From NCBI RefSeq assembly GCF_988242995.1, contig NZ_OZ547043.1: a stretch of DNA of 64,000 bases; one strand, written 5' to 3'. Made by a program: the position numbers and the translations under genes. Of the stretch, positions 6,719 to 54,431 are shown in pieces (within the stretch, counting starts at the first letter, position 1; every line of letters starts with the position of its first letter). The notes below the pieces were generated by a model that saw nothing but the letters and a program-made list of their open reading frames with translations, was not told the origin of the DNA and did no database searches.

Positions 6719-8035
6719 TTATCTTGAAGAAATTTTAGGCAGGCTTTTTAAAAATAAATCTTTATTTCTACTTGCATCAGTTAAAAGTGTTAGGAATATT
6801 TTATCTGTAGGAGTGCATGTGCTCTTGTTTAACAGTAATTCACCAAGTTTCTGTAATCGAGAGAATTGCCCATCCTCTTGGATTCTGTGACGAAGTGTAC
6901 TATCATTTTTAATAACATCAACAAATGCAGAAACCATGTTAATATCAAAGTGTTCAAACATTTCCAATATTAAAGGTGCAGCCCCATTTGAATAAAAATT
7001 CTTCCTTCCATACTGATAGCTGAAACCACGATGGCCAACATAAGTTTTTGTAATGGCTGAAACAAATTCAACAATATTATCTTCAGGGACGAAACTCGAG
7101 AATGGTAATAATTGGGTTACGATTTTTTCCTCTTCTGACCAATTATCTAAAGACTCGGTGAGTTTATTAATGAGAGGCTCAATAATAACTTTTCGGGATG
7201 CAGGGCTAATATACATCAGTCCATCTACCAATAGTATGAATTGTTGTGCCTTCTCTATCTTATTGTTGTTTCCTGAAACTAAATACTTGTCAAATTGTTG
7301 GCCGACTTTACGTCGGTCGTCTTTTGAAAGTAATGTCCATAAAATAGGTGCGCAAAATTCAATGTTGTTTCTGAGTTCACTTGATATATTGGATGAGCAG
7401 TATGTGCCAAAAAAACGAGAGGATAATTCACTGATATAAATTGCAGGTAGATCTGAAAAGGCTTGCTTAACTGCCAGACTATTTTTATTAAATGTTGCCG
7501 AATCCATTTCTGAAAGATATGTAGTTATATCTATGATGGCTGGTGGAAACTCTTTAGAAAGAACGTATTTATTACAATCATTAATCAGGTTCACTACTTT
7601 GATTAAATCAGGGTCGCTACTTTGTGGATGTCCACCAAATAGATTCCTGGTTTCTCTAGCTTGTTGTAATAGTTTCTGACCTTCTCGATCGATAACTCCT
7701 ATTTTAAATGCTCCATCTATTAAATCAAAGTCGCTCACATAATCCTGAAAATCTTCATACGTTTTAATTTCTTTTTTTTGTTTACACTCTTTGTTGAATA
7801 GATCTAGGCTACGATGAATTATCTTTTGACGTAAATCATCAACTACAGCATTCCAGTAAGCAGTGATGGCACTTCTATAACCTTTTACAGGAAGAACTCT
7901 TATTGCTTCTGAAATATATGGGCAGTCAACTACATCATGCCTCACAGTTGAGAGCGCAGTTTGTAACAATGTAACTTCTGTAGAGTCTAGTGGAGTTGGC
8001 TGCACTAAATGAGAACTTATCTCTGTACCCTTCAT
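6719..8035 (-). CDS. 438-aa hypothetical protein with N-terminal HEPN-like Rx5H motif (R130-N-L-F-G-G-H136); candidate abortive-infection/defence protein
   Basis: Long ORF on the opposite strand in a visibly AT-rich 2-kb block with its own upstream region and terminator; no similarity to phage structural or housekeeping proteins that I recognise. Confidence 0.5.
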   Translation of the reverse strand: MKGTEISSHLVQPTPLDSTEVTLLQTALSTVRHDVVDCPYISEAIRVLPVKGYRSAITAYWNAVVDDLRQKIIHRSLDLFNKECKQKKEIKTYEDFQDYVSDFDLIDGAFKIGVIDREGQKLLQQARETRNLFGGHPQSSDPDLIKVVNLINDCNKYVLSKEFPPAIIDITTYLSEMDSATFNKNSLAVKQAFSDLPAIYISELSSRFFGTYCSSNISSELRNNIEFCAPILWTLLSKDDRRKVGQQFDKYLVSGNNNKIEKAQQFILLVDGLMYISPASRKVIIEPLINKLTESLDNWSEEEKIVTQLLPFSSFVPEDNIVEFVSAITKTYVGHRGFSYQYGRKNFYSNGAAPLILEMFEHFDINMVSAFVDVIKNDSTLRHRIQEDGQFSRLQKLGELLLNKSTCTPTDKIFLTLLTDASRNKDLFLKSLPKISSR

Positions 8036-8391
8036 TTCAGGATTTTCCTATTCTTTTCCATTTTTCTACTCTATTGAATTTGAAAAAGATATCAAGTTCG
8101 TTCTTGCCAGTTTTAAGTGGAAAATTTGATGTTACCTTATTGAGATAAGGCAGTTCTCTATAACCTATTGTTATTAATTATTTTTATTTTTTTCCAATTC
8201 AGATGTTTAGGGCTAAGAAGTTAAGTGAGAGTTCACAGCAAAACTGCTTCTAGTTCCTCACCGAGGAGCAAAAGGTTAAGACAGCGTACTTTGTATTGCA
8301 CAATGTATTGCAGAACCTTCTTTCGAAAGCTACAACAATCAATTTTATATTGAAAATTCAATCATATCCTTTCGATATTGACTCATATAAC

Positions 8392-9179
8392 CCAAGCATG
8401 AGGTGAATCCGCAGATGACCCTGCGTCGCCTGCCGGATGAAGATCCGCAGAATCTGGCGGACCCGGCTTACCGCCGCCGTCGCATCATTATGCAGAACAT
8501 GCGTGACGAAGAGCTGGCCATTGCCCAGGTCGAAGAGATGCAGGCAGTTTCTGCCGTGCTTAAGGGCAAATACACCATGACCGGTGAAGCTTTCGATCCG
8601 GTTGAGGTGGATATGGGCCGCAGTGCGGCCAACAACATCACGCAGTCCGGCGGCACGGAGTGGAGCAAGCGTGACAAGTCCACGTATGACCCGACCGACG
8701 ATATCGAAGCCTACGCGCTGAACGCCAGCGGAGTGGTGAATATCATCGTGTTTGATCCGAAAGGCTGGGTGCTGTTCCGTTCCTTCAAAGCCGTCAAGGA
8801 GAAGCTGGATACTCGTCGCGGCTCTCATTCCGAGCTGGAGACAGCGGTGAAAGACCTGGGCAAAGCGGTGTCCTACAAGGGGATGTATGGCGATGTGGCC
8901 ATCGTCGTGTATTCCGGACAGTACGTGGAAAACGGCGTCAAAAAGAACTTCCTGCCGGACAACACGATGGTGCTGGGGAACACTCAGGCACGCGGTCTGC
9001 GCACCTATGGCTGCATTCAGGATGCGGACGCACAGCGCGAAGGCATTAACGCCTCTGCCCGTTACCCGAAAAACTGGGTGACCACCGGCGATCCGGCGCG
9101 TGAGTTCACCATGATTCAGTCAGCACCGCTGATGCTGCTGGCTGATCCTGATGAGTTCGTGTCTGTACAACTGGCGTAA
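8392..9179 (+). pseudogene. E: Major capsid gene E, 5'-truncated (about the first 96 codons missing)
   Basis: Translation from ...PKHEVNPQMTLRRLPDEDPQNLADPAYRRRR... to ...DPDEFVSVQLA is near-identical to lambda gpE residues about 97-341; upstream sequence is unrelated AT-rich DNA. Confidence 0.85.
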
Positions 9180-9181
9180 TC

Positions 9182-9207
9182 ATGGCCCTTCGGGGCCATT
9201 TTCTCTC
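9182..9207 (+). terminator. Stem-loop ggcccttcggggcc + T-run between E and FI
   Basis: Read directly from sequence. Confidence 0.4.
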
Positions 9208-9220
9208 TGTGGAGGAGTTC

Positions 9221-33962: not shown

Positions 33963-36186
33963 TTTCGGACTCCAGTTGCGCAACCTGTTCTGTGTTTAAA
34001 CCTGCTTTGAGTAATAGTGATTGCATCGAAACTTGTAATTCGCGTTGAATTGTCAGGACGCGATCCAACGTTTCCTGGCTGATAACGCCTTCGGTGACCA
34101 AAAACTTGCCGAGCGGCAGAGAACTACGTTCATGGCGCAATAACAACACGTTAATTGCTGAACGATTAATATGACCGAGTGTGGTCAGTATTTCGGCGAA
34201 CAGGAACTGATGCGGCACATATTGCCGCCAGATTTCACCGGCCTGCTGTTCCGTGAGCCACTGATGCTGAACCGCATTGTACAACATTGCCCGCGGATCG
34301 TGACCGCGTCGGCGCGCATACCAGTGGCGTAACCCCGTGACAATTTGTCCCCGCAGAACAATGACGTAACGCACTTTGCGTCCGACTTTACGCGTCAGGG
34401 CCGCCAGCGAAACCGGGTCAATACCATCTTCACTGCCGACAATTAACTCATCATTTTCCAGACGCAGCGGCAGTACTGCATAATGCAGCGCCACGGAGGC
34501 CGGCATTTCGGCAATCAGTGATGAAGGGATCTGCCAGGCGTCGATCGACTCCCACGCCACGCCGTTTTGCTCTGCCAGCGCCTGTGCCAGCTGTTCGGCG
34601 CTAATCAGCCCCTGCATCAGCATTGAACCGCCCAGGCGTAGACCTTCGACGCGATTACGCAGTGCTGTATCGAGTTGTTCTTCAGTGATGACCTGATTTT
34701 CCAGCAGGATTTGACCTAACGGACGCAACGAGCGGGTATCGCCAGTCACGCTGGGGAAGTCATGCGTTGTTTTATCCCACGCGACACGACGTGGATCGCC
34801 GTGTTGAAGTACCTGTTTTAACGCGCGCCAGTTGGCCATGAAGTTAATCAGGTTGCCCCAGAAAAGACGCAGGACAGATAGCAGCCCCTGCGTCAGGCCG
34901 TAGTAGCCAGTAACGAAAATCACCCGCTGCACGATGCGGTTAATCATCAAGCCAAAGTTTAGCCACAGCAGAGTCATTAACCATGCGCTGCCGCTGAAAA
35001 TAGAAAGGAAATGCCAGGCATCGGGCCACAAACTTTCATACGCCAGCAACAGCAAAAGCTGGATCATCACCAGCATCGCGAGGAAGCTGACAAAGTTACT
35101 GATTGCCCCTTTGCGGTCGCGCCAGAGAAAGTAGTTCAGCGTCAGGCTGGAGGTCCATTTGTGGGTTTTAAAGCCCTGGAAAACAATGCCGATGATCCAG
35201 CGAGATTTTTGTCGAACCGCAGTCGAAAAGGTATCGGGGAAATATTCGCGCACGCAGATCATGTTTGACGTCCGCGCGTGCTGTAAAAATTTACGCTGCT
35301 CGCGTTCTTTGGCTTCGTCCACCACCGGAAAACGGACAAAAATTTCCGTCATACCTTTTTCTTTCAGGCGGAAACCAATGTCGTAATCTTCAGTAAGACT
35401 CTGCACGTCGAAAGCAATACCGTCACCGTCAGCTAACAGTGCGGTCACGGCGCGGCGGCTGAAACAGGTGCCGACGCCTGCGCTGGGCACTTGTCCGGCG
35501 AGGGCTTCACGCACCGGAACATCTTTGCCATGCAGTTCTGAAAACTCATCAATGTAAGTCATGCTGGTGAAGTGCGTCCATTCGCGTTCGAACGGATACA
35601 CCGGGATCTGAATCAGATCTTTACGCTCGACCAGATAGTTGAACAGACGCAATTCCATCGGTGAAATTACGTCTTCGGCGTCATGCAGAATAAAACCAGC
35701 AAAAGCGAAATTGGCGCTACGCTCAAACTGGGTGATGGCGTCCAGCACGTTGTTCAGGCAGTCGGCTTTGCTGGTGGGGCCAGGACGCGCGCAGACTACC
35801 TTATGCACATTCGGGAAGCGAGCGCACACTTCGTCAACATCACGCTGAGTATCGGGGTCGTTGGGGTAGGTGCCAACAAAGATATGATAGTTTTCATAGT
35901 CGAGCGTGGTCGCCGCCAGCTCGGCCATATTGCCGATGACGCCCGTTTCATTCCACGCCGGAACCATAATCGCTAACGGTTTTTCATCTGGTTTATACAG
36001 TTCGCGGTAACTCATTCGCGGGTAGCGGCGATAAACACTCAACTTGCGTTTAATGCGGCGTACCCAGTAGACGACATCAATAAAAAAATCGTCCAGCCCG
36101 CTGATGAACATGATGACCGCTAACGTTATCGCGATTACTTTTAAGCCGTAGAGCCAGGTAGCAAAAACATCAAGAAGCCAGTCCAC
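33949..36186 (-). CDS. nfrB: Bacteriophage N4 adsorption protein B (family 2 glycosyltransferase, inner membrane)
   Basis: 745-aa ORF matching E. coli NfrB. Confidence 0.9.
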   Translation of the reverse strand: MDWLLDVFATWLYGLKVIAITLAVIMFISGLDDFFIDVVYWVRRIKRKLSVYRRYPRMSYRELYKPDEKPLAIMVPAWNETGVIGNMAELAATTLDYENYHIFVGTYPNDPDTQRDVDEVCARFPNVHKVVCARPGPTSKADCLNNVLDAITQFERSANFAFAGFILHDAEDVISPMELRLFNYLVERKDLIQIPVYPFEREWTHFTSMTYIDEFSELHGKDVPVREALAGQVPSAGVGTCFSRRAVTALLADGDGIAFDVQSLTEDYDIGFRLKEKGMTEIFVRFPVVDEAKEREQRKFLQHARTSNMICVREYFPDTFSTAVRQKSRWIIGIVFQGFKTHKWTSSLTLNYFLWRDRKGAISNFVSFLAMLVMIQLLLLLAYESLWPDAWHFLSIFSGSAWLMTLLWLNFGLMINRIVQRVIFVTGYYGLTQGLLSVLRLFWGNLINFMANWRALKQVLQHGDPRRVAWDKTTHDFPSVTGDTRSLRPLGQILLENQVITEEQLDTALRNRVEGLRLGGSMLMQGLISAEQLAQALAEQNGVAWESIDAWQIPSSLIAEMPASVALHYAVLPLRLENDELIVGSEDGIDPVSLAALTRKVGRKVRYVIVLRGQIVTGLRHWYARRRGHDPRAMLYNAVQHQWLTEQQAGEIWRQYVPHQFLFAEILTTLGHINRSAINVLLLRHERSSLPLGKFLVTEGVISQETLDRVLTIQRELQVSMQSLLLKAGLNTEQVAQLESENEGE

Positions 36187-36383
36187 ACAAAAACCTTACA
36201 TTAACGCTGGTTATGTTTAGGGTGGCGTATATTAAGGTTTTTTATGAATTGTGACAGCTTTTTACCATTAATAGGTATGACTATTGCGGCACGTTATTTT
36301 TACACTGGTTATAAAAGTTGCCGTTTGCGTAGAATGTAGACAAAAGCGTGGTGTCAAGGAGGGGAGGTTAACGCAGGGCAAGA

Positions 36384-37520
36384 TTACGAAAGCCCGCTCC
36401 CCGCAAGGACTGACGCGAGATAGTTTCTGCCCATGGCTGCTTTTCGCATCTTACGTCTTAACCCTGCCTTGAATATCTTATCATTCGTTAAAATATTAAT
36501 AGCGATGTGCCGTATCCCTGAATATAATTCTGCGGCGTTTCCTCTTCTTATTTTGCAGTCGTCTTCATTCATTACCACGTCCAGACGCCAGTGCAGCTTA
36601 TTCTCCACGTGCCAGTGGTTTCGGATTGCTGTGGCGAACTTCTCTGCGGTTAAATCAGCAGAACTGATATAATATCTGACCGTCATTTCTGGCTCTTTCT
36701 TTTGTTCTGCTATTATTGACCGAAAGGAGACTGCCACACATAATTTCTTCAGTCCTTTCCATTCAAACGTGAAATCAATAAGTTCATCAGGGACATCGCA
36801 AACAATATGAAGACGGATTTCTTCTCTGCCGTGACTCTTTTCACTAATGGCGTAACTGTCATGCTCTGGATTATTTAATTCTTTCAGTGGAAATTTTTCC
36901 TCAAAGGCTTTATTAAGCCGCCCCTGGTTTCCTTTTACAGCGAATAAATAATCACCGCCCTGTTTTTGTATCTTCTCTGCAATATCTTTCTGGCAACCCA
37001 TCGCATCAGTTGTGATGATTTTTCCTTTAATATACAGCATGTTAAGAAGTTCTGGGATAGCTGTAATCTCATTAGATTTCTCATCCGTTCTGATCTGTCC
37101 GATGACCAGACTGTGCATTGTTGAGAACGCACTAATGACATGAATCGCTCCCCTGCGGCGACTCTTGTCATAAGAATGCCGGAGTGTTTTTCCATCGATT
37201 GCAATAACGTCTTTATCATCTGAAGTATGGCAATCTCGCATCCAGTTAATAAAGCACTCGTGAAATTTTGAAGGACTGATACAGGATACAACTCTGGCGA
37301 TGGTATCGTGAACAGGAATACCATTTTCAAAATCACCATATTGTTTTAAAAAATCGAGATGTGTTTCCCCAAAATCCTCTATATCTTCCCAACCTTCTGC
37401 ACCAGAAATAACGGCACAAATAGTCAACAGTAGAATATCCGATAATTTATGTTCCACTTTCCAGGCTTGTCTGTAATCGGGGATAATAGAAATATGCTCC
37501 ATCAATTTTTTAAGTTCCAT
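36384..37520 (-). CDS. ISAs1-family transposase (H-repeat-associated protein), apparently full length
   Basis: 378-aa ORF matching E. coli H-rpt proteins (YhhI/YbfD type) associated with Rhs loci. Confidence 0.8.
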
Positions 37521-37786
37521 TTTGTTCTCCTTAATTATGTAAGGAGTATTTGATCATGTATAAGCAATAAAAACAGCTTTAGGTAATGAGGAATATCTCA
37601 ATTTTTAAACATAAAATGCGAATTATTTAGTACAAAAAAGCAGCGTTACGTGATCTTTCCCTGGTGTACTTCTGATGATCTTTCCCTGGGTTAAACAGGT
37701 GGTGAAGGGAATGAAGAATGGGATATCCGGCGTATTACGCGAGGTATAAAAATAAAAGCCGGGAGATTGTCACTCCCGGCAACATA

Positions 37787-38068
37787 TTATTTTTTTATTT
37801 CATTATATCTGATAAAAAAAGTATTTAGTGCATCATGTTCATCTTGTGAGAACAATAAAATAATTTTATCCCATGAATGTCCTGTTACTCCATAATAGTC
37901 TTCAATATAAGATTGAAGCCTTATTAATATCTCAATATTGACGATTTCTTTTGGCTCTCTCATTTGCCATCCATCCAGGAAAGCTTTTAACGCCGATATG
38001 GTATGCCTGCTTAAATATAAAGCTGGTCTTTTTTCTATCATATCAATCAGTTTAACAATATCATTCAT
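37787..38068 (-). CDS. Putative Rhs immunity protein (93 aa)
   Basis: Small AT-rich ORF starting 2 nt after the rhs stop on the same strand; position typical for cognate immunity. Confidence 0.55.
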   Translation of the reverse strand: MNDIVKLIDMIEKRPALYLSRHTISALKAFLDGWQMREPKEIVNIEILIRLQSYIEDYYGVTGHSWDKIILLFSQDEHDALNTFFIRYNEIKK

Positions 38069-38070
38069 AA

Positions 38071-41000
38071 TTAAAACCTTGATGGAGTAATGGTGTATTC
38101 GCCAGGAGAGTATATATCATTCAGCCAATCTTCATACTTTATACCAGAAGGATTCATATTATCAAAAACTGTATCACCTACTTTTATTGCTTCATGATGA
38201 CCATTAGTTGCTATATTTTTACCTATTCTATCACTCCATATATTGCCAAAGGCGCCTTGTTTATTTTTAGTTTCGAGTATGAGATGCTCACCATTTACCC
38301 CAGCTTGTTGCATTTTACTTTTTAACGCTGCGGCAAATTTATCGCATTGAAAAAGCTGTTTAAACTTATCACTTATTGTTGTTGCAAGATCCCTTGTTTT
38401 TGCGATATCGCAAATGGTTAATCCTAATGGATCAATATAACCAAGGGGATTATGAACATATGCATAATTGTTTATCCCGCCTCTCAGCCCTATCGGATCA
38501 CTCACCAGGTACATCCCGGTTTCCGGCTCGTAATACCGGAACCGGTTATAGCACAGCCCGGATTCCGCATCCTGCCACTGTCCTGCATACAGCAGGCCGG
38601 GGTCGGCTTCCGGGTCCAGCTCCCCACGCGGGTCCGGGTAGCCGGTGTCTGCGGGCAGGCTGAGTGCCAGCCCCCACAGGCTGGTCTGTCCCGGTCGCCA
38701 GACGGTTTTACCTTCACTGTTAAAGAGCATCAGCGGCCGGCCCGTCAGGTCGCTCACCGCATGATTCGTCCGCGTCACCCACTGCGGGGCCACGGACGGA
38801 TGCGCCTGCCGTACCCGGCTGCACTGCTGGCTTATCAGCTCAAAGCCGTTAAACACCAGGTGCCGCACACTGTACAGTTTATCATCGCGGTATTCCCGGA
38901 TTTCCGCAATACTGTCGCCATCCCACAGGTACGTAAAACGGATTTTCTTCCGGTCGCAGCGTTTCTCTGTTCGTCTGCCGCTGGCATCGTGGCGGTATTC
39001 CCACTGTTCACCCTGTGCGCTGCAATACCCGGTCAGCTGGTCCCGGCTGTCCCACCGGAACCGCTCTGTTTCCGGGCGGTAACCGTCACGGTGTCTGGTG
39101 CGGCTGACCATCCGGCCTGCGGCGTCATAGTCATACTGCGTGTTTCCGGCCTGTTTCAGCCGGTGGCCTCCGGCATACTGGTCAGTCTCTTCACTTATCC
39201 GGTGCCTGCCCGCAGACTGCGCCTTCAGGTAGCCGCAGCTGTCATAGCCATAAGTCTCATCGCCTTCGCCATAGCCCAGCCCGGTGCCTGAGGCTGTCAC
39301 CGCCGTGACCTGGCCGTTCCGGTCCAGCCGGTACTCCCGCCGTGTTTCCCGTCCGTAGTCTTCCCGGCTGGTGACAGCCGACACATTACCCGCGCTGTCG
39401 TAACGGTACTCCCGCACCAGTGAGGGGAGCAGCCCGCCCCATGTGGCTTCCGCCGGGAAAAATCCGGCGCGCTGGCTGACAGCCTGACCGGCTGCATTCC
39501 AGCCCTGCTCACAGGCAAAACCCCGGTTACTGTGCCGGAGCACTTCACGTCCTGCCTCATCACGGCTGAACGTCAGCGTCTCATCCCCCGGCAGGATAAC
39601 CTCCGTCAGTTCTCCGGCGGCGTTGTAGCGGTAGGTGGTTTTCAGCAGGGATTCACCGGGGTGTCTGTCGCGTTCATCTTCCGGTGGCAGGATACAGCGG
39701 ATGACGGTGTGTTCATCGGGGTGGTGGTATTCAATGGCCCGTCGGCCCTGAGTGGTGACATTCACCCGGCCGCGTTCGTCATAGCCGGTGCGCTGTGATG
39801 TGCCGTCCGGGCTGAAGATACCCGTCAGCCTGCCGGATTTGTCATACGCATACTGCGTTTTGCCTTCCGGCGTGATGACTTCTGCCAGGCGGCCTGCGGC
39901 GTCCCGGCTGTAGAGGATAGTTTCCTCCAGGCCGTTGACCCTGGCGGTACACAGGCCATCGGCGTCATAGCGGTAACGCCAGACCACGCCGCCCCAGTCA
40001 CGCTCTTCCGTCACCCGGCCGCAGTTATCCAGAACATAAAGATATGACTCACCCTGCGGATTGATGACTTCTGTCAGTTGCAGCGTGTCTTTATCGTAGC
40101 GGTACTGCCAGCGGTGGCCTTCACCGTCCGTTCGCGCCACCGGCAAATCAAACGGGCCGTACTCCATTGTCCAGACAACGCCATTGCCGTCCGTCCAGGC
40201 CAGCAGGTTGCCGTGGCGGTCGTTGCGGAATCCTTCCGCGCCGGTTCCAGTGCGCTCAAGGCCGCTCAGTTTATGGTGCTGCTGCCACTGCAACCGCACT
40301 GACTGACCGCCGGGGCCGCGCATCTTCACCGGCAGGTCGTGACCACTGTATTTGGTGTGGTGTTCGCGGCCCATCACGTCGGTGAGTGTTTCCGGCCGGT
40401 TGTGGCGGTCGTACTCTATGCCCAGACGCCGTTCATCCTGGCGGAATATCCCCGACAGCAGCCCCTGAGCGGTGTATGCCAGCCGGGTCTCTTCGCCCTG
40501 TGGCGACACCTGACTTACCGGCAGGCCGCGTTCATCACACTGCTGTGTCCACGTCTGCCCGGCAGGGTCGGTGATGTTGCTGAGCAGGCCGCGCTCATCA
40601 TAGCGGTACAGCCACTCCGCGCCGTCTGCCGCCGTGTAACGGCTTAACTGACCGAGTGCGGCGTTGTCTTCAAATTTCTCCACCCGCCCGGCAGGGGAGT
40701 GGCGGGCCAGCAGGTGATGGAATTCATCCCATTCATACGTGGTGGTACTGCCGTCCGGCGCGTCTTCCCGCAGGATATTGCCGTCAGGATCATAGTAATA
40801 ACGGTGAATGCCCTTGCCGTCCGTCACGGTGGTGCAGCCGTCCCCATAGTCCAGCGTGGCGTTGTAATAGCCCTCCGCCCCGGTGACGGTCACGCACCGG
40901 CCCTGTGTATCGTAGGTGAAACGGCTCCACGTCTGGTCGTTATCGGACCAGCGGATGATCCGGTCCGCATCGTCGTACTCATAAAACAGGTGGTAGTCCA

Positions 41001-42735
41001 GCCGCGCATCCGCTTCTGTCAGCCGCCCCCGCGCATCCTGTTCGTAGGTCGCCAGCGTCTGTATGCCGTTATCCGTGCGGTGAATGGCTTTCAGGTAGCC
41101 GCTGGCGTGGTACGTCAGTTTAAGCCGGATCCCGTCAGTGTGACTGACACCTGTGATCCGGTACTGGCTGTCGCGCTCAAACGTGATGCGGTTGCTGGCG
41201 GTGTCGCTCATCCCGCCCAGCATGTACATCCGGTCTGCGGGGCTGTGTGCCAGACGGTCATCGCTGGTATCGTCAGTCACCGGGTGGCGCAGACGCATTC
41301 CCGGAAAGGCGTCATAAAAGAAGCGGCTGCTCAGTGCATCCCTGTCGAACAGCTCCAGGTAATCATCGCGGCGGCGCAGAATGTACTGGGCGTGATACGG
41401 GTTAACCGCCGTATCACTGTCACCGTCGAAGGCAAATCTCAGCGTGGTTCCCTGGCTGATGATATCCACCCGGTTTCCCTGTTCACGCACCCAGGCGTAT
41501 TCGCTCCAGGAGTCGCTCCAGCCCACGCCCGTCAGGCCATGCAGTGGCAGTACAGAACTGTGGAAACGGGTGAAGGAGAGGGGGAGTGTCTGGCCCAGCG
41601 TAAAGTCGGTACGTTCGTCGCAGTATGCGCCGGTTACCGGATCGACAGGATCTGTTACCCATCTGATGACTTTATTGGCAATACTTTTTAACGACTTACC
41701 TGTTTTCCCCAGCAACGCGCCGAGCTTTGCCCCCAGCAGCTTCCCGCTTTTCCCCAGCAGGTTTCCCAGTTTGCCGAGTCTCGCCAGATTCTTCAGTTTT
41801 CCCAGCAGTCCCGCTGGCGGCAGAAGATAGCTGGCTATCGTTATTCCCCCCAGGATCATTCTCTGCCACGGCGGGAACTCCGGCTGGATATCCAGATAGG
41901 TGACCTGCTCACCCCCAATAAAGACGTCCGGCGAACCTTCCACGATTGCCGCACTGCACTCCAGTTTGTCCCCCTTGCGTGCAGCAGGCTGATTGTTGAT
42001 AAAGACGTTGCTGCTGCCCTGGGCTATCCTCGGCGGTTTGTTCTCCTTGTCGCAGAGCGCCGTGTCCTCACCGGCTTCCGGGAAATCCACGTCTTTTTTG
42101 ATTTCGCCACGCCCGCCCACCATGGTGGCAAACTCCATTAATACCGGACCGGCGGGAAACAGAAGCGATGCGCCGGCGCTGACGCGATCCATAATACCGG
42201 CATTGCTGTCCGTCAGGGTGATAACAGCGTTCCCCCAGGCCTTCGCCAGTGGTACTGCTTTTTCCGCTGCCGATTCAAGCAGGTCAGTGGCAATATCCCC
42301 CCATGAAGGTTCCCCCTGTGGTAGAGAGGGTATTGCTTCAGTCAGGGGAGGAGGGGGAAGGGTGACGGCGGCCCTGGCAGCGGGCTTTCCGTTAATTTTT
42401 ACATTTTTAGAACCAGTATTGATGGCCCCGTCCTTGTCACAAAAGCTGTTTATCCATGACTCAAGCTGGTTCTGTTTCTCCTCCACATAATCACTCGCCT
42501 TATAGCTGGCATACATCAGCGCAGGCACCAGAACCAGCGCATAAGGGCCGGTGGCGCAGGCGGCCATAATCAGGCAACCTTCTGCGATAGTTACTATCGC
42601 CCCCAGCACGGCCCCTGCCAGTGCCCCCAGAAAACTTTTATGCTGAATTTCATCGTCCAGTCTGGCGGCAGGTGGGCCGGACTTCTTTGCTGCCAGCATC
42701 TCTGCAATGGCTTTGTCGTTGGCTGCCCGTTTCAT
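38071..42735 (-). CDS. rhs: prePAAR/PAAR-Rhs type VI secretion effector with unassigned C-terminal toxin domain
   Basis: 1554-aa ORF; N-terminal prePAAR motif AARLDDEIQH, hydrophobic TM region, YD/Rhs repeats, terminal DPIGL...PLGYIDPLGL motif, then an AT-rich 116-aa C-terminal extension. Confidence 0.85.
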   Translation of the reverse strand: MKRAANDKAIAEMLAAKKSGPPAARLDDEIQHKSFLGALAGAVLGAIVTIAEGCLIMAACATGPYALVLVPALMYASYKASDYVEEKQNQLESWINSFCDKDGAINTGSKNVKINGKPAARAAVTLPPPPLTEAIPSLPQGEPSWGDIATDLLESAAEKAVPLAKAWGNAVITLTDSNAGIMDRVSAGASLLFPAGPVLMEFATMVGGRGEIKKDVDFPEAGEDTALCDKENKPPRIAQGSSNVFINNQPAARKGDKLECSAAIVEGSPDVFIGGEQVTYLDIQPEFPPWQRMILGGITIASYLLPPAGLLGKLKNLARLGKLGNLLGKSGKLLGAKLGALLGKTGKSLKSIANKVIRWVTDPVDPVTGAYCDERTDFTLGQTLPLSFTRFHSSVLPLHGLTGVGWSDSWSEYAWVREQGNRVDIISQGTTLRFAFDGDSDTAVNPYHAQYILRRRDDYLELFDRDALSSRFFYDAFPGMRLRHPVTDDTSDDRLAHSPADRMYMLGGMSDTASNRITFERDSQYRITGVSHTDGIRLKLTYHASGYLKAIHRTDNGIQTLATYEQDARGRLTEADARLDYHLFYEYDDADRIIRWSDNDQTWSRFTYDTQGRCVTVTGAEGYYNATLDYGDGCTTVTDGKGIHRYYYDPDGNILREDAPDGSTTTYEWDEFHHLLARHSPAGRVEKFEDNAALGQLSRYTAADGAEWLYRYDERGLLSNITDPAGQTWTQQCDERGLPVSQVSPQGEETRLAYTAQGLLSGIFRQDERRLGIEYDRHNRPETLTDVMGREHHTKYSGHDLPVKMRGPGGQSVRLQWQQHHKLSGLERTGTGAEGFRNDRHGNLLAWTDGNGVVWTMEYGPFDLPVARTDGEGHRWQYRYDKDTLQLTEVINPQGESYLYVLDNCGRVTEERDWGGVVWRYRYDADGLCTARVNGLEETILYSRDAAGRLAEVITPEGKTQYAYDKSGRLTGIFSPDGTSQRTGYDERGRVNVTTQGRRAIEYHHPDEHTVIRCILPPEDERDRHPGESLLKTTYRYNAAGELTEVILPGDETLTFSRDEAGREVLRHSNRGFACEQGWNAAGQAVSQRAGFFPAEATWGGLLPSLVREYRYDSAGNVSAVTSREDYGRETRREYRLDRNGQVTAVTASGTGLGYGEGDETYGYDSCGYLKAQSAGRHRISEETDQYAGGHRLKQAGNTQYDYDAAGRMVSRTRHRDGYRPETERFRWDSRDQLTGYCSAQGEQWEYRHDASGRRTEKRCDRKKIRFTYLWDGDSIAEIREYRDDKLYSVRHLVFNGFELISQQCSRVRQAHPSVAPQWVTRTNHAVSDLTGRPLMLFNSEGKTVWRPGQTSLWGLALSLPADTGYPDPRGELDPEADPGLLYAGQWQDAESGLCYNRFRYYEPETGMYLVSDPIGLRGGINNYAYVHNPLGYIDPLGLTICDIAKTRDLATTISDKFKQLFQCDKFAAALKSKMQQAGVNGEHLILETKNKQGAFGNIWSDRIGKNIATNGHHEAIKVGDTVFDNMNPSGIKYEDWLNDIYSPGEYTITPSRF

Positions 42736-42886: not shown

Positions 42887-43348
42887 TCAGCGCGGCTGGT
42901 CCTGTTTGATATTCTTCTCCGGCGGTAATGGTGTGAAGCTCTTTATCACATCGAGCAGCATCGTCTTTTGACTGTTCTTAAGGGGTAAAGACGTACTGAA
43001 CGTGAAGGTCAGCAGCGTATCACCACGCCGCTGAAATACGGCTATCTGGCTAATCCGCCCCTGATTCCCTTCATCTTCCGGACCGTTCCAGGAATAATCC
43101 AGCAGCCAGGCCGGGGCCTCTGCCAGAGTGATTTCCCGGCAGGCATGTTCGGTGTAACCGTCCAGCTTGCCCTGGTACAGCGCCAGCGTTTCCTTGTACA
43201 GTTCTGGTGTCAGGGTTCCCTGTGGAACGGGTTCGCGGGTAATGACCAGGTTGATGCCACTGTTATCTGTGGACACCAGGACCTGCATTGACTGATCCTG
43301 CCATTGCGATGGCAGCTGAATATGACCTTCATTAAAAGTGAACTGCAT
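42887..43348 (-). CDS. DUF1795-family (Eag-type) effector chaperone
   Basis: 153-aa ORF between vgrG and the prePAAR-Rhs; size and position typical of Eag chaperones. Confidence 0.6.
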   Translation of the reverse strand: MQFTFNEGHIQLPSQWQDQSMQVLVSTDNSGINLVITREPVPQGTLTPELYKETLALYQGKLDGYTEHACREITLAEAPAWLLDYSWNGPEDEGNQGRISQIAVFQRRGDTLLTFTFSTSLPLKNSQKTMLLDVIKSFTPLPPEKNIKQDQPR

Positions 43349-43375: not shown

Positions 43376-45277
43376 TCAGTTAATGAAAACAGAACCGCCC
43401 ACGATGGTGATGCCATCCTTCGACAGCCTGATTACCGTCGATTCCCCGACCTGTAGCTGAATGCCATCCGGCGTCAGCGCAATTTTGCTTTCCTCCACGG
43501 CCAGCATAATTTGCTTAATTGCCGTATAAGCCTGTATACCGTCGCCTTCGCCACCATTGTTTACAGCGTCAACATGCACTGAACCGGCAATCGTGCCTCT
43601 GTCCTGAAAAACATCCTCAGATAAAGACCCTTTTAGTACGCCTGTGATTTTGTGGCCTTTTTCCACCGTAAGAAGGCGGTTACCTTCCTGGATCGTGACC
43701 GTCTGGTCATTTTTTACGGTTTCGCGGTGATCGTGTTTTACGGTGGTGGTACGGTCGTTGAGTACCTCGGTATCCATGTTCTTCTGGGCGTGGATGTAGA
43801 CCTGTTCTTTCCCTGTCGCATCGTCAAACTTCAGCTCGTTAAACCCGCTGCCCATATATGTTTTGGAGCGGATGGTCATCTGCGTCTTCGTTCCCGGCAG
43901 GCTGCCCGGCGAGCGGTTATCTTCGTGGTAGGTGCGCCCCATAATGATCGGCTGGTCCGGATCGCCGTTGAGGAAGTCCACAATGACCTCCTGACCCACA
44001 CGCGGTATCGCCAGATTGCCGAACCCGGCTCCTGCCCACGCCTGTGCCACACGGATCCAGCACGAACTGTCCTGGTCTGCCGGGTTATAGCGGTCCCAGT
44101 TGAATTTCACCCGCACCCGGCCATGCTCGTCGCAGAAGATTTCCTCTCCCGCAGGCCCCGTCACGACGGCGCTCTGTGGACCGTCCACTGACGGCTTTGG
44201 CTTCGGCTGTGGCCGCCACGTCCGGTCTGCCGGGATTACCACAAACTGGTTCTCCAGCGCCGTCCCCGCGCCCCGCCGTCCCGGCACCGCCTGCGGCTGT
44301 TCGCCGTGCAGTTCGCTCGCCACCACCTGCCATTCCCGGTTCAGGTTCGCCTGCGGATGCTCCGTCAGCACAATTCGCCGTCCCGGCCATATCTCCGGCG
44401 AGCGGCTCATTCCCCGCGCGGTTTCTGCGTTGTTTCGCCAGCCGTCCATCTGCCAGCGGGCAAAGTTCTGCCCGTGGGCGCTCTTGAAACGCCCGGGGTA
44501 GTCATACACTTCATACTGCGTGCGCTGGTAGTCCTGGTGCTGGCCTTCCTGTTCAAAACGTCCGGCCCAGCCGGGGCGTTTAAAGGTGTAGTCTTTGGTC
44601 ACCACGGAAGAAGGGCGGATTTGTGCGCTGTAGCGGAACTGGCTGATGCAGAGGGTGCTCACCTCGGTACGGGTGTTCGGGTTCCATGGGATTTCAAAAG
44701 ATTCGGGCAGATGGCGGACTGTGTCGCACAGCACCAGGCTCTGGTCGGTACTTTTGTAAGCATGCTCCTCATAAAAGAAGATGCCTTCCTCCGCCGCCAT
44801 CCGGCACAGGAAATCGTAATCAGTCTCACCGTACTGGACACAAAACTCACGGGAAGGATGCGGCTCGCTGAACAGCGGACTCCATTCGGTCACCCCGTTT
44901 TCCTGCAACATCGTGCCGAGGATGCTTCTGATGTCCTCGTTCTGGAAGATACGGAAGTTCTGACGCAGTCCTGCCCGCCACAGCGGCGGGCGCACCTTCA
45001 TGCTGTACAGCATCTGGTTTTTGTCGTTCTCCCCGAGTTCAAACCAGGTCACCACGCCTTTCACCCGGCGCTGTACGTCATCGCCCTGCCATACCGTCAG
45101 GTAGGCCATTTTGTCCAGCACCTGCGCAAATTCAAGGTAGAGAAACTGCTGACTGACCAGAGAAAGGTCAAGGGAAAAAAGTGAAGAGAGTGACTGGGTG
45201 AGATGAAAGGAGACCACCGCAAAAGCGTCCGGTGGCAGGCCGTCCACTTCCAGTGTGAAACGTAATCCGGTTGACAT
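43376..45277 (-). CDS. vgrG: Type VI secretion spike protein VgrG
   Basis: MSTGLRFTLEVDGLPPDAFAVVSFHLTQSLSSLFSLDLSLVS... gp27/gp5-like; the ORF could start 12 codons upstream at 45313. Confidence 0.85.
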   Translation of the reverse strand: MSTGLRFTLEVDGLPPDAFAVVSFHLTQSLSSLFSLDLSLVSQQFLYLEFAQVLDKMAYLTVWQGDDVQRRVKGVVTWFELGENDKNQMLYSMKVRPPLWRAGLRQNFRIFQNEDIRSILGTMLQENGVTEWSPLFSEPHPSREFCVQYGETDYDFLCRMAAEEGIFFYEEHAYKSTDQSLVLCDTVRHLPESFEIPWNPNTRTEVSTLCISQFRYSAQIRPSSVVTKDYTFKRPGWAGRFEQEGQHQDYQRTQYEVYDYPGRFKSAHGQNFARWQMDGWRNNAETARGMSRSPEIWPGRRIVLTEHPQANLNREWQVVASELHGEQPQAVPGRRGAGTALENQFVVIPADRTWRPQPKPKPSVDGPQSAVVTGPAGEEIFCDEHGRVRVKFNWDRYNPADQDSSCWIRVAQAWAGAGFGNLAIPRVGQEVIVDFLNGDPDQPIIMGRTYHEDNRSPGSLPGTKTQMTIRSKTYMGSGFNELKFDDATGKEQVYIHAQKNMDTEVLNDRTTTVKHDHRETVKNDQTVTIQEGNRLLTVEKGHKITGVLKGSLSEDVFQDRGTIAGSVHVDAVNNGGEGDGIQAYTAIKQIMLAVEESKIALTPDGIQLQVGESTVIRLSKDGITIVGGSVFIN

Positions 45278-46020
45278 AGCAACCTCCGTGAAAATGAATA
45301 ATAATCCGCACATATTGCATGTACAACATGTCGGGTAATGAGATAAGCGGGCCGGCTTCAGGTGTTACCGGGGAATATCAGAAAAGTGTCATGGTTATGT
45401 GAGAATTTTGTCCGGGATTTTACTTCAGAGAAACGGGGGTCTGTTGAGTCAACAAAATAATCACAAACTCAACTGACGGGTTCACGATGTTATTAAGGAC
45501 AGGCTCGTATATTACATCGAGTAACAAAAAAACACCTGATATGCAAAGTTAAACCAATATTCATAATGTCTTTTTATTCACAGTAATAAATAATTCAATA
45601 AACATCATTGAAATGAATGATGGTTTGTATAAGGAATATACGCTACCGCCCCACCCTGATAACATGATCTGCACATTGCCATCTTAACGTCGTTAGACGC
45701 TGGCTTAATAGTGAATATTTTAAATTAGGAATTTATCAAATCCACTTGATAAATAGATTGTGTGAATAATATAGAGATTAATGATGCCTGACTGCGCTTT
45801 ATATTATAGCCGATTCTTTTATAGTGATGAAAATTTAGTAATAGCATTGTGCTCTACAATTGGTAGAAACACGAATTTGATTAAATTGCATATCTAAATA
45901 TCTCGTAAATATCCGAAAATGAATAACCTTCGATTTCAGACGACCAATAAGGTCTTCCCTGTTTTATTGATAAATAATAACAGAAGGCGATACATCACTC
46001 TTTGAGTTTGAACTAACTAA

Positions 46021-50052: not shown

Positions 50053-51276
50053 ATGAAAAAAATCGCGCTTATTATCGGCAGCATGATCGCGGGCGGTATT
50101 ATTTCTGCGGCAGGTTTTACCTGGTTTGCAAAGGCGGAACCGCCCGCAGAAAAAACGTCGACCGCAGAACGTAAAATCTTATTCTGGTACGACCCGATGT
50201 ATCCCAATACGCGGTTCGATAAACCAGGTAAATCGCCGTTTATGGATATGGATCTGGTGCCGAAATATGCCGATGAAGAGAGTTCTGCGTCTGGTGTGCG
50301 CATTGACCCGACTCAGACGCAGAATCTGGGGGTGAAAACGGCTACCGTCACGCGCGGGCCGCTGACTTTTTCCCAGAGTTTCCCGGCGAATGTCAGTTAC
50401 AACGAGTATCAGTATGCCATTGTGCAGGCTCGCGCTGCCGGGTTTATCGACAAGGTGTATCCGCTTACCGTGGGCGATAAAGTGCAAAAGGGCACACCGC
50501 TTCTCGACCTGACCATTCCCGACTGGGTGGAAGCGCAGAGTGAGTATTTACTGCTGCGCGAAACCGGCGGTACGGCGACCCAGACTGAAGGCATTCTTGA
50601 GCGGCTGCGACTGGCGGGAATGCCGGAGGCGGATATTCGCCGCCTGATCGCTACGCAAAAAATCCAGACTCGCTTTACGCTCAAAGCGCCCATTGATGGC
50701 GTGATCACCGCGTTTGATCTGCGCGCGGGAATGAATATCGCCAAAGATAATGTGGTAGCGAAAATTCAGGGTATGGACCCGGTGTGGATCACTGCCGCGA
50801 TCCCGGAGTCCATCGCCTGGCTGGTGAAAGATGCCTCGCAGTTTACGCTCACCGTTCCGGCGCGACCTGATAAAACACTCACCATTCGCAAATGGACCCT
50901 GCTACCCGGCGTGGATGCCGCGACCCGCACGCTGCAGCTGCGTCTGGAAGTCGACAACGCCGACGAGTCGCTAAAACCGGGCATGAACGCCTGGTTGCAA
51001 CTCAATACCGCCAGCGAACCGATGCTGCTCATTCCGTCACAAGCGCTGATTGATACCGGCAGCGAACAGCGGGTGATTACCGTTGATGCCGACGGGCGCT
51101 TTGTACCGAAACGCGTTGCCGTTTTCCAGGCATCGCAAGGCGTCACCGCGTTACGCTCTGGTCTGGCGGAAGGTGAAAAGGTGGTTTCCAGCGGCCTGTT
51201 CCTGATTGATTCCGAAGCCAATATTTCTGGCGCACTGGAGCGGATTCGCTCTGAAAGTGCTACCCATGCGCATTGA
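50053..51276 (+). CDS. cusB: Membrane fusion protein CusB
   Basis: 407-aa ORF matching CusB. Confidence 0.9.
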   Translation: MKKIALIIGSMIAGGIISAAGFTWFAKAEPPAEKTSTAERKILFWYDPMYPNTRFDKPGKSPFMDMDLVPKYADEESSASGVRIDPTQTQNLGVKTATVTRGPLTFSQSFPANVSYNEYQYAIVQARAAGFIDKVYPLTVGDKVQKGTPLLDLTIPDWVEAQSEYLLLRETGGTATQTEGILERLRLAGMPEADIRRLIATQKIQTRFTLKAPIDGVITAFDLRAGMNIAKDNVVAKIQGMDPVWITAAIPESIAWLVKDASQFTLTVPARPDKTLTIRKWTLLPGVDAATRTLQLRLEVDNADESLKPGMNAWLQLNTASEPMLLIPSQALIDTGSEQRVITVDADGRFVPKRVAVFQASQGVTALRSGLAEGEKVVSSGLFLIDSEANISGALERIRSESATHAH

Positions 51277-51287
51277 GGGAATAACCA

Positions 51288-54200
51288 ATGATTGAATGGA
51301 TTATTCGTCGCTCGGTGGCGAACCGTTTTCTGGTACTGATGGGCGCGTTGTTTCTGAGTATCTGGGGCACCTGGACCATCATTAACACGCCAGTGGATGC
51401 GCTGCCGGATCTCTCCGATGTGCAGGTGATTATTAAAACCAGCTATCCCGGTCAGGCACCGCAAATCGTTGAAAATCAGGTGACTTATCCGCTAACCACC
51501 ACCATGTTGTCGGTGCCTGGCGCGAAGACTGTGCGCGGTTTCTCGCAGTTTGGCGACTCTTATGTGTATGTCATTTTCGAAGATGGCACTGATCCGTACT
51601 GGGCGCGTTCGCGGGTGCTGGAGTACCTCAACCAGGTACAGGGTAAGCTCCCTGCGGGAGTCAGCGCCGAGCTGGGGCCAGATGCCACGGGTGTTGGCTG
51701 GATCTATGAATATGCACTGGTGGATCGCAGCGGTAAGCACGATCTTGCCGATTTACGCTCATTGCAGGACTGGTTTCTCAAATATGAGCTGAAAACCATT
51801 CCTGACGTTGCGGAAGTGGCGTCGGTAGGCGGTGTGGTGAAAGAGTATCAGGTGGTTATCGATCCTCAGCGTCTGGCGCAATATGGCATCAGTCTCGCCG
51901 AAGTAAAAAGCGCGCTGGATGCTTCAAACCAGGAAGCGGGCGGTTCGTCGATCGAATTGGCGGAAGCGGAATATATGGTGCGCGCCAGCGGCTATCTGCA
52001 AACGCTCGACGACTTTAATCACATCGTTTTAAAAGCCAGTGAAAATGGCGTGCCCGTTTATCTGCGCGATGTTGCGAAGGTCCAGATTGGCCCGGAGATG
52101 CGCCGGGGCATTGCCGAACTAAACGGCGAAGGCGAAGTGGCGGGCGGGGTGGTGATCCTGCGCTCCGGCAAAAACGCCCGAGAAGTAATCGCCGCCGTGA
52201 AGGACAAACTGGAAACGCTGAAAAGCAGTCTGCCGGAAGGCGTGGAGATAGTTACAACATACGATCGCAGCCAGCTCATTGACCGCGCCATCGACAACCT
52301 CAGCGGCAAGTTGCTGGAAGAGTTTATTGTGGTGGCGGTAGTCTGTGCGCTGTTTCTCTGGCATGTGCGCTCGGCGCTGGTGGCGATTATTTCGTTGCCG
52401 CTGGGGTTGTGTATTGCTTTTATTGTCATGCACTTTCAGGGACTGAACGCCAATATTATGTCGCTGGGCGGTATTGCTATTGCCGTCGGGGCGATGGTCG
52501 ATGCCGCTATCGTCATGATCGAGAATGCGCATAAACGGCTGGAAGAGTGGCAGCACCAGCATCCTGACGCCACGCTGGATAATAAAACGCGCTGGCAGGT
52601 GATCACCGATGCATCTGTTGAAGTGGGGCCGGCGCTGTTTATCAGTCTGCTGATTATCACGTTGTCGTTTATCCCGATCTTCACCCTGGAAGGGCAGGAA
52701 GGGCGTCTGTTTGGCCCGCTGGCGTTCACCAAAACGTATGCGATGGCGGGTGCGGCGCTGCTGGCGATCGTAGTGATCCCTATCCTGATGGGCTACTGGA
52801 TCCGTGGCAAAATTCCGCCGGAAAGCAGTAACCCGCTCAATCGCTTTTTGATTCGTGTTTATCATCCGCTGTTGCTGAAAGTACTGCACTGGCCGAAAAC
52901 CACGCTGCTGGTGGCGGCGCTTTCGGTGCTGACGGTTCTCTGGCCGCTCAATAAAGTTGGCGGGGAATTTTTACCGCAGATCAATGAAGGCGACTTGTTG
53001 TATATGCCATCGACGCTGCCGGGGATTTCCGCAGCAGAGGCGGCGAGTATGCTGCAAAAAACCGACAAGCTGATTATGAGCGTACCTGAAGTGGCGCGGG
53101 TATTTGGCAAAACCGGGAAAGCGGAAACCGCCACCGATTCTGCTCCGCTGGAGATGGTAGAAACGACCATCCAGCTTAAGCCGCAGGATCAGTGGCGGCC
53201 AGGCATGACGATGGACAAAATCATTGAGGAACTGGATAACACCGTGCGTCTGCCGGGGCTGGCGAATCTGTGGGTGCCGCCAATTCGTAACCGTATCGAT
53301 ATGCTCTCAACCGGCATTAAAAGCCCCATCGGCATTAAAGTTTCCGGCACTGTGCTGGCGGATATCGACGCGATGGCGGAGCAAATTGAAGAAGTGGCGC
53401 GAACGGTGCCAGGCGTAGCTTCTGCGCTTGCCGAGCGTCTGGAAGGTGGGCGCTATATCAACGTTGAGATTAACCGTGAAAAAGCCGCGCGTTACGGTAT
53501 GACGGTGGCGGATGTGCAATTGTTTGTGACATCTGCGGTGGGCGGGGCGATGGTTGGCGAAACGGTGGAAGGGATTGCCCGTTATCCAATTAATCTGCGT
53601 TATCCGCAAAGCTGGCGCGATAGTCCGCAGGCGCTGCGCCAGTTGCCGATTCTGACGCCGATGAAGCAGCAAATCACCCTGGCAGACGTGGCTGACGTTA
53701 AAGTCTCTACCGGACCGTCGATGCTGAAAACCGAGAATGCGCGCCCGACGAGCTGGATTTATATCGATGCCCGCGATCGTGACATGGTGTCGGTGGTTCA
53801 CGATTTGCAAAAAGCGATAGCTGAAAAAGTGCAGTTAAAACCGGGCACCAGCGTGACATTCTCCGGGCAGTTCGAGCTACTGGAGCGCGCCAACCATAAG
53901 CTGAAACTCATGGTGCCGATGACGCTGATGATCATCTTCGTGCTGTTGTATCTGGCGTTCCGTCGGGTGGGCGAAGCGTTGCTGATTATCAGCAGCGTAC
54001 CGTTTGCGCTGGTGGGCGGCATCTGGTTGCTGTGGTGGATGGGCTTTCATCTTTCCGTGGCGACGGGCACCGGTTTTATTGCCCTTGCCGGGGTCGCCGC
54101 CGAATTTGGCGTGGTGATGCTGATGTATTTACGTCACGCCATAGAGGCCGAGCCGTCGTTGAATAATCCGCAAACATTCAGCGAGCAGAAGCTGGATGAG

Positions 54201-54431
54201 GCGTTATATCACGGCGCGGTCCTGCGCGTGCGCCCGAAAGCGATGACGGTGGCAGTGATTATCGCCGGTCTGCTGCCGATTCTGTGGGGAACGGGGGCTG
54301 GTTCAGAGGTGATGAGCCGGATTGCCGCACCGATGATTGGCGGCATGATCACCGCACCTTTGCTGTCGCTGTTTATTATCCCGGCGGCGTATAAGCTGAT
54401 GTGGCTGCACCGACATCGGGTACGGAAATAA
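51288..54431 (+). CDS. cusA: RND copper/silver efflux pump CusA
   Basis: 1047-aa ORF matching CusA. Confidence 0.9.

Follow-up and report, generated by a model that had tools for sequence, protein, structure and literature searches.

A Tox-PL-2 papain-fold domain and its immunity gene in a type VI secretion Rhs effector of Escherichia coli: family, predicted fold and possible chemistry

Which toxin sits at the tip of an Rhs protein, and what may it do in the cell that receives it? The question is raised by a 64,000-nucleotide stretch of Escherichia coli DNA (contig NZ_OZ547043.1, RefSeq assembly GCF_988242995.1), called the window hereafter. Its minus strand carries a rhs gene (38071..42735) with an AT-rich end, followed at once by a small open reading frame (ORF) of 93 codons. 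An original prediction, made from the sequence alone, had read this end as the toxin domain of the Rhs protein, closely linked to an immunity gene downstream. That reading held: the domain matches the Tox-PL-2 toxin family, and the 93-aa ORF starts 2 nt past the rhs stop, the TAA at 38073-38071 being followed by TT and then by an ATG at 38068. Judged from its sequence, the Rhs tip is a small cysteine enzyme of this named family in an ordinary toxin/immunity cassette, which is real, intact and probably functional. We further consider it rather probable that the domain is a thiol amidohydrolase, tentatively a deamidase, which a type VI secretion system (T6SS) delivers, which acts in the cytoplasm and which the immunity protein neutralises by binding.

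Family of the C-terminal domain and of its immunity partner

The Rhs C-terminus reads ...DPIGLRGGINNYAYVHNPLGYIDPLGL/TICDIAK...TPSRF. The core ends with DPIGL at residue 1413 and DPLGL at residues 1435-1439, in the stretch DPIGL(1413)RGGINNYAYVHNPLGYIDPLGL(1439). The AT-rich tail beyond these motifs, put at 116 residues in the original prediction, is present with 115, a trivial off-by-one. This 115-aa domain (38074..38418, minus strand) matched the Pfam hidden Markov model (HMM) of the papain-fold toxin domain Tox-PL-2 (PF15643) with E=6e-23 and 81.5 bits, over model positions 7-102 of 103. Its close homologues all carry PF15643, and near-identical E. coli copies are labelled 'papain fold toxin domain-containing protein' in RefSeq. 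Tox-PL-2 ('Papain fold toxin 2') was defined by a C, NxxH, DN signature by Zhang, de Souza, Anantharaman, Iyer & Aravind in 2012 (PMC3482391); here the signature appears as FQC(1464)DKF, N1511-G-H-H1514 and D1525-N1526. The predicted catalytic triad consists of Cys1464 (nt 38346-38344), His1514 (38196-38194) and Asp1525. The C, H, D and N and one glycine (Gly1531) are invariant in 52 diverse Tox-PL-2 sequences. With this match, signature and RefSeq name, the view that the domain could not be assigned to a known toxin family had to be abandoned.

The domain is a member of Tox-PL-2 from which nothing sets it apart structurally. It shares with the family an HMM match over nearly the whole model, the signature, the extreme C-terminal place in Rhs and other polymorphic toxin carriers, and a predicted papain-like alpha+beta structure. 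An exhaustive profile search yielded, at 50% identity, 642 representatives of the family, of which 260 had E<=1e-10, and the domain formed the extreme C-terminus in 147 of the 162 proteins examined. The 2012 survey had placed Tox-PL-2 in beta/delta-proteobacteria, cyanobacteria and firmicutes, with export by the type II secretion system or by TcdB/TcaC (PMC3482391). The carrier here differs in being an enterobacterial prePAAR T6SS Rhs protein, and we also observed extracellular contractile injection system (eCIS), DUF6443 and CdiA/two-partner secretion (TPS) carriers. Full-text literature searches found no experiments on Tox-PL-2 activity, all mentions being computational, and only chance-level matches to the Protein Data Bank (PDB) were obtained with the domain sequence or the family profile. 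The original prediction had counted a match to a WELL-CHARACTERISED toxin family as evidence against itself; Tox-PL-2, with a purely computational literature and no solved structure, is not such a family. Searches of NCBIfam, PADLOC and PHROGs with the domain and the immunity protein returned nothing useful, the only hit being a weak PHROGs endolysin match (E=0.15).

The 93-aa ORF (37787..38068 including the stop, minus strand) is the cognate immunity gene. Eleven independent Tox-PL-2 loci, window included, had readable downstream DNA, and in all 11 a member of the same immunity family lay directly downstream of the toxin. One immunity gene was found behind the T6SS PAAR-Rhs protein of the window, an Rhs protein encoded downstream of a VgrG-like gene in Burkholderia mayonis (L003), an orphan Rhs in Neisseria zalophi (L004), an eCIS protein in a Bacteroidetes metagenome-assembled genome (L005), metagenomic HINT-Rhs (L008) and DUF6443 (L010) carriers, and each of the Rhs proteins of L012-L014 (metagenomes and, for L014, an NCBI assembly). 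A metagenomic Rhs toxin (L009) is followed by three tandem paralogous immunity genes (7876-9218), and a metagenomic CdiA-like toxin of the CdiA/TPS type (L016) by a single 217-aa protein with two fused immunity domains (6728-7381).

This pairing bears on a different reading of the locus, in which the domain is aimed at a eukaryotic host, or is a mere self-processing peptidase, and the small ORF is no immunity gene. It has been remarked that Tox-PL-2 proteins may target host cells (PMC10318531); SseI, PMT, Ceg10 and SpvD are host-directed effectors, and some papain-fold domains of polymorphic toxins are releasing peptidases (PMC3482391); however, a small gene of one family behind the toxin at every one of the 11 loci, free-living cyanobacterial and environmental lineages included, is a hallmark of self-protection, and a domain standing at the very C-terminus of most of its proteins has nothing beyond it to release. 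We regard both forms of this reading as very improbable.

The immunity protein begins with MNDIVKLIDMIEKRPALY and was predicted by AlphaFold2 (AF2) to be all-alpha, with six helices (predicted local distance difference test, pLDDT, 96.1). Neither a signal peptide nor a transmembrane segment was detected in it, the maximum hydropathy over 15 residues being 0.91. A profile search collected 112 homologous clusters from Enterobacteriaceae, Burkholderia, Neisseria, Moraxella, Bacteroidetes and many cyanobacteria, without any Pfam domain save in one fusion of a toxin remnant with an immunity domain. The nearly invariant positions of the family are I, P, Y, L, F, G, F, W, A, F and F; conservation thus falls on hydrophobic residues, proline and glycine, and no polar residue of catalytic type is conserved. 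The lack of such a residue, together with that of a signal peptide or transmembrane segment, fits a cytoplasmic binding inhibitor.

The original prediction had called this protein a member of an unrecognised family. As far as current libraries go this stands: no match was found in Pfam, NCBIfam, PADLOC, PHROGs or the PDB (the last searched by sequence and profile, with chance-level hits only). When 98 members of the family were compared with Pfam-A, none matched at E<=0.001, nor did Imm73 appear in the list of weak matches; the divergent immunity paralogue at L009 had no Pfam match. The claim is weakened by the earlier description of 'Imm73', an all-alpha, Tox-PL-2-linked family conserved mainly at hydrophobic positions, found in cyanobacteria, bacteroidetes and beta/gamma-proteobacteria and sometimes present as two or three tandem copies in one polypeptide (Zhang et al. 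2012, PMC3482391). The family of the 93-aa protein agrees with this description in its all-alpha fold, hydrophobic conservation, linkage to Tox-PL-2, phyletic spread and occasional tandem copies, as in L016 and in a two-domain cyanobacterial protein (P0116). Compared with it by description, the family most probably corresponds to 'Imm73'.

Several further features of the immunity family were observed. The immunity proteins of E. coli and B. mayonis (L003) are 62% identical and the toxin domains 52%. The motif GHSWDKIILLFSxDE is invariant in the closest immunity subfamily (17 sequences), whose taxon-named members are proteobacterial. Such conservation is unusual, since an immunity protein as a rule changes more rapidly than the toxin it counters, and it may point to cross-protection between distant bacteria. 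No significant correlation between toxin and immunity identities emerged over seven loci (Spearman 0.09; Pearson 0.37, p=0.095), a sample too small, and not independent enough, to be relied on. In a Microcoleus ORF (P0091), the last ~45 residues of the toxin are joined straight to an immunity domain. In Nostoc linckia (L006/L007, 5001-5333), an immunity-family gene has no called Tox-PL-2 beside it, only an ORF of 61-62 aa lying upstream; it adjoins a TacA-family antitoxin/GNAT acetyltransferase pair and gas-vesicle genes, and is a probable orphan immunity gene. On the side of the carriers, the Bacteroidetes locus (L005; JACPUU010000012.1, 1470-4997 and 6720-10303) encodes a 1175-aa protein with eCIS_core and a C-terminal Tox-PL-2 domain, then the immunity gene, with a second eCIS_core protein just downstream. 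From this arrangement, Tox-PL-2 would seem to be among the cargo of extracellular contractile injection systems too.

Predicted fold and likely chemistry

The original prediction had proposed structure prediction as a check on the toxin domain. The AF2 model, built on an alignment of 52 sequences, reached a pLDDT of 97.5 and has a papain-like alpha+beta fold. In domain numbering, helix 26-39 has Cys26 at its N-terminus, and adjacent strands carry His76 and Asp87. The model thereby places Tox-PL-2 in the papain/transglutaminase arrangement, on the transglutaminase-like branch of the papain fold. Ozhelvaci and Steczkiewicz (2023) had likewise grouped Tox-PL-2 in the transglutaminase cluster (PMC10318531).

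Comparison of the model with solved structures gave the highest structural score, 8.5-8.7 with 105 of 116 residues aligned, for the Chryseobacterium protein-glutaminase, a glutamine deamidase, followed by human NTAQ1, also a glutamine deamidase (7.3). Below these came the protease LapG (6.7), the glutamine deamidase SseI (6.6), Ceg10 (6.5), the protease SpvD (6.3), the NlpC/P60 protein MepS (5.8), the NlpC/P60-type amidase Tse1 (5.7), the transglutaminase Factor XIII (5.3), the glutamine deamidase PMT (5.0), the C39 peptidase LahT (4.6) and the deamidase TecA (4.5). Foldseek ranked protein-glutaminase, PMT, NTAQ1 and SseI on top. According to the model, the domain has in common with the glutamine deamidases of the transglutaminase-like clade both the fold and the Cys-His-Asp triad. 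We tentatively favour deamidation over peptide-bond cleavage because two methods both gave glutamine deamidases as the closest solved structures. Deamidation would be the likeliest chemistry, peptide cleavage a close second and transamidation a distant third.

The Foldseek E-values were weak (0.09-0.4). No sequence homology to protein-glutaminase, NTAQ1, PMT or SseI was found at E<=10 in searches of the PDB by sequence and by profile, and identity to protein-glutaminase, NTAQ1, PMT-C3 and SseI in the structural alignments was only 6-17%. In size these enzymes exceed the domain (~165-205 residues, or a single domain within a chain of 711); they do not occur as modules of polymorphic toxins and have no immunity partners.

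The second chemistry in this order would make the domain a true cysteine endopeptidase that cuts one or a few essential cytoplasmic proteins, as Cpe1 does with GyrB and ParE, while lying outside the Cpe1 clade. Papain-like protease toxins are known: Cpe1/Cpi1 of E. coli ATCC 11775, EvpQ, TsaP and StbD-CT have been described as such, and Cpe1 cuts GyrB and ParE at a double-glycine site, LHAGGKF (PMC12136450). The domain resembles them as a papain-superfamily Cys-His-Asp toxin carried on the T6SS (PAAR/VgrG/Rhs) or on CdiA. It also resembles them in its small adjacent immunity protein, which in the Cpe1-type toxins neutralises an activity exerted in the cytoplasm (PMC12136450), the site we propose for the present domain; the proteases LapG and SpvD stand among the better structural matches. 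Yet the evidence from the modelled fold points away from the Cpe1-type proteases and towards glutamine-directed amidohydrolases. We consider an endopeptidase possible, and somewhat doubtful. Membership in the Cpe1 group itself was rejected: the domain has no sequence relation or close fold relation to the C39 double-glycine peptidases of the ComA/LahT type.

Transamidation would mean that the domain is a transglutaminase, cross-linking or polyaminating its target glutamine instead of hydrolysing it. The placement of Tox-PL-2 among transglutaminases agrees with this; the score of Factor XIII lies well below that of protein-glutaminase, and we find this chemistry improbable. The matches to MepS and Tse1 recall yet another kind of enzyme, one of NlpC/P60 or Tae type that would act on the cell wall as an amidase or endopeptidase and degrade peptidoglycan in the periplasm. 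Tae immunity proteins are periplasmic. The immunity protein studied here, in contrast, has no signal peptide, lipobox or transmembrane segment, no export signal was evident in the inspected homologues either, and the exported partner typical of Tae and NlpC/P60 toxins is thus missing; the structural scores of MepS and Tse1 were, in addition, clearly below those of the deamidases. There is very little to recommend a periplasmic amidase.

Returning to the cytoplasmic amidohydrolase, its action may be pictured as follows. The T6SS would fire the VgrG/PAAR-Rhs spike. By analogy with other Rhs proteins, in which the C-terminal domain is cleaved off after DPxGL, the Rhs cage would free the 115-aa domain after DPLGL, the presumed autoproteolytic site. 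In the recipient cytoplasm, proposed as the site of action because the immunity protein is cytoplasmic, the Cys1464-His1514-Asp1525 enzyme would then alter an essential protein conserved among bacteria. The alteration may be a side-chain amide hydrolysis, tentatively the deamidation of a glutamine of this protein. Sister cells would be guarded by 1:1 (stoichiometric) binding of the 93-aa immunity protein.

Edges of the cassette and its orphan copies in E. coli

The original prediction took the shift in composition as the mark of a horizontally exchanged toxin/immunity cassette, and this proved right on two counts: the breaks in GC content and in identity coincide, and other E. coli strains carry the same cassette, displaced, as an orphan. 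The window as a whole has a GC content of 0.509; the rhs body lies above this at 0.60, the toxin domain and the immunity ORF below it at 0.351 and 0.291. The left edge of the exchangeable cassette starts in the DPIGL region and reaches the DPLGL demarcation (38419..38494, minus strand), where both GC content and identity to the main rhs of other strains break. Across this edge, GC in 60-nt windows falls from 0.52 to 0.40 and then to 0.35, the fine-scale fall starting at ~38490. In a three-way alignment (38494-38395), identity to the main rhs of other E. coli strains falls from ~0.98 to 0.58 at ~38494, whereas identity to the orphan rhs stays constant at 1.00. The identity break lies ~25 codons ahead of DPLGL, where GC falls too. 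Since the composition break coincides with the identity break (~38494), the edge is a real module boundary and not noise.

The cassette is rare in E. coli, being carried by only 7 of 5426 complete genomes, with identities of 97-99.5%. In public contigs, an identical 1554-aa Rhs was found on 7 and an identical immunity protein on 493. In all five complete genomes that were opened (L001, L011, L017, L002 and L018), the Tox-PL-2 cassette is the last orphan module, behind a rhs fragment with internal stops, either downstream of a main Rhs whose C-terminal domain is another one, or at a second rhs locus, close to ybgA/phrB. The window recalls the orphan rhs-CT (C-terminal toxin domain)/immunity modules of Salmonella and E. 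coli rhs loci, which recombine into the main rhs gene: in the opened E. coli genomes its cassette is the last orphan behind another main C-terminal domain, and the core is near-identical. It differs in having the cassette in the main position, in frame with a full-length Rhs. Because it is in frame here, whereas it is a silent terminal orphan in the opened genomes, the Tox-PL-2 domain would be the primary, deliverable toxin of this strain. A rhs core of ~1.5 kb is common to the main and the terminal orphan copies at 0.91-1.00 identity (window 38494-39991; L011 7673-9168 and 10073-11660), which is ample homology for the swapping of C-terminal domains. The crossover between main and orphan rhs could not be placed in this core, which is too alike to both (0.91-1.00). 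The in-frame state would have arisen by recombination of an orphan into the main gene, or it would be the ancestral one, the C-terminal domain having been displaced elsewhere by a newer one.

In E. coli d1-58 (L002; NZ_CP187961.1, 2759-16712) and PEC395 (L018), orphan rhs-CT/immunity pairs alternate near ybgA/phrB with a repeated unit of ~6.5 kb. The unit consists of symE and a helix-turn-helix gene, both on the minus strand, a gene for a ~910-aa CHC2 zinc-finger (primase-like) protein, and one for a XerC-type tyrosine recombinase; at least two copies are present, plus a third symE. By their gene content these units look like tandem integrative elements or an integron-like array, with one toxin/immunity cassette per unit.

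Beyond the immunity gene, an intrinsic terminator closes the rhs-immunity operon (37750..37780, minus strand), formed by a hairpin (37780-37758) with an 8-bp stem of which 7 pairs are GC, followed by a T-run; its sequence is GCCGGGAG-7 nt-CTCCCGGC, then TTTTATTTTT. The terminator scan returned 2 sites against 0.5 expected. At the right edge of the cassette lies the remnant of a toxin gene of the symE family (37642..37749, plus strand), which converges on the immunity gene and is cut by an ISAs1 insertion. It translates to a C-terminal fragment with an internal stop, and RefSeq annotates a partial SymE on the syntenic stretch. Behind the same cassette, strains d1-58 and PEC395 have an intact symE of 109 aa. 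A 378-aa transposase of the ISAs1 family (H-repeat; NCBIfam transpos_ISAs1, E=1.7e-123) is encoded between the cassette and nfrB (36384..37520, minus strand). No Rfam match was found in 36000-39000. Promoter-like sites inside the toxin domain were no commoner than in shuffled sequences, and an internal promoter for the immunity gene is not claimed.

The carrier module and the meaning of the cassette

The rhs gene encodes a full-length effector of 1554 aa with prePAAR, PAAR, DUF6531 and YD repeats, identified by Pfam and NCBIfam matches. At the N-terminus, prePAAR_I spans residues 23-69 (Pfam, E=1.1e-5), with AARLDDEIQH visible for the motif AARxxDxxxH; PAAR_motif follows at residues 235-279 (E=2.6e-10) and DUF6531 at residues 362-417, both by Pfam. 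The shell is made up of 13 stretches matching YD_repeat_2x (E=2.8e-66) and of Rhs_assc_core (residues 1378-1439), both from NCBIfam. Directly upstream of rhs, a 153-aa protein of the DcrB/DUF1795 family is encoded (42887..43348, minus strand; Pfam DcrB PF08786, E=7.9e-28), named 'DcrB-related protein' in RefSeq. In class I prePAAR effectors, an Eag-type chaperone serves the prePAAR transmembrane region, and by analogy the 153-aa protein may do so for this Rhs. The first gene of the vgrG-eag-rhs module encodes the T6SS spike protein VgrG, of 645 aa (43376..45313, minus strand; NCBIfam TIGR03361 VI_Rhs_Vgr, E=6.6e-188, above cutoff), and its syntenic gene carries a VgrG annotation in E. coli genomes. 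The prePAAR and PAAR motifs, the upstream vgrG and DUF1795/Eag genes, and a YD shell with DPxGL...DPxGL followed by a variable C-terminal domain all match the features of class I prePAAR Rhs proteins. As far as gene content can tell, VgrG, the DcrB/DUF1795 protein and the prePAAR-PAAR-Rhs protein form a standard class I prePAAR T6SS Rhs effector module.

The surroundings are those of E. coli, with nfrB, nfrA, ybcH and ompT on one flank and cusRS/cusCFBA on the other. For cusB-cusA (50053-54431), the best identity among the 5426 complete E. coli genomes was 98.8%, none of them reaching 99%, and the source strain seemingly comes from a lineage sparsely represented among complete assemblies.

Taken by itself the locus is routine, one more Rhs toxin/immunity cassette for which a RefSeq label already existed; the toxin family was already named and annotated, and the immunity family had probably been described in silico in 2012. 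Its value lies in offering a convenient entry to Tox-PL-2, a family that occurs in many phyla and with no fewer than five delivery systems, in the form of an E. coli cassette fused to a T6SS Rhs carrier that is complete. Neither Pfam nor NCBIfam, as searched here, contains the immunity family, and a family model could flag Tox-PL-2 loci as well as orphan immunity genes. As a wider and clearly speculative proposal, Tox-PL-2 domains may deamidate (or transamidate) protein glutamine and so inactivate a cytoplasmic protein that is essential and conserved in bacteria, with many carriers, and with one helical, unusually conserved immunity family to block them. To our knowledge, no deamidase class of interbacterial toxin was known earlier, and Tox-PL-2 would be the first. 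If the deamidase reading is true, the family would bring a new chemistry into interbacterial warfare, delivered by T6SS-Rhs, contact-dependent inhibition, eCIS and other carriers.

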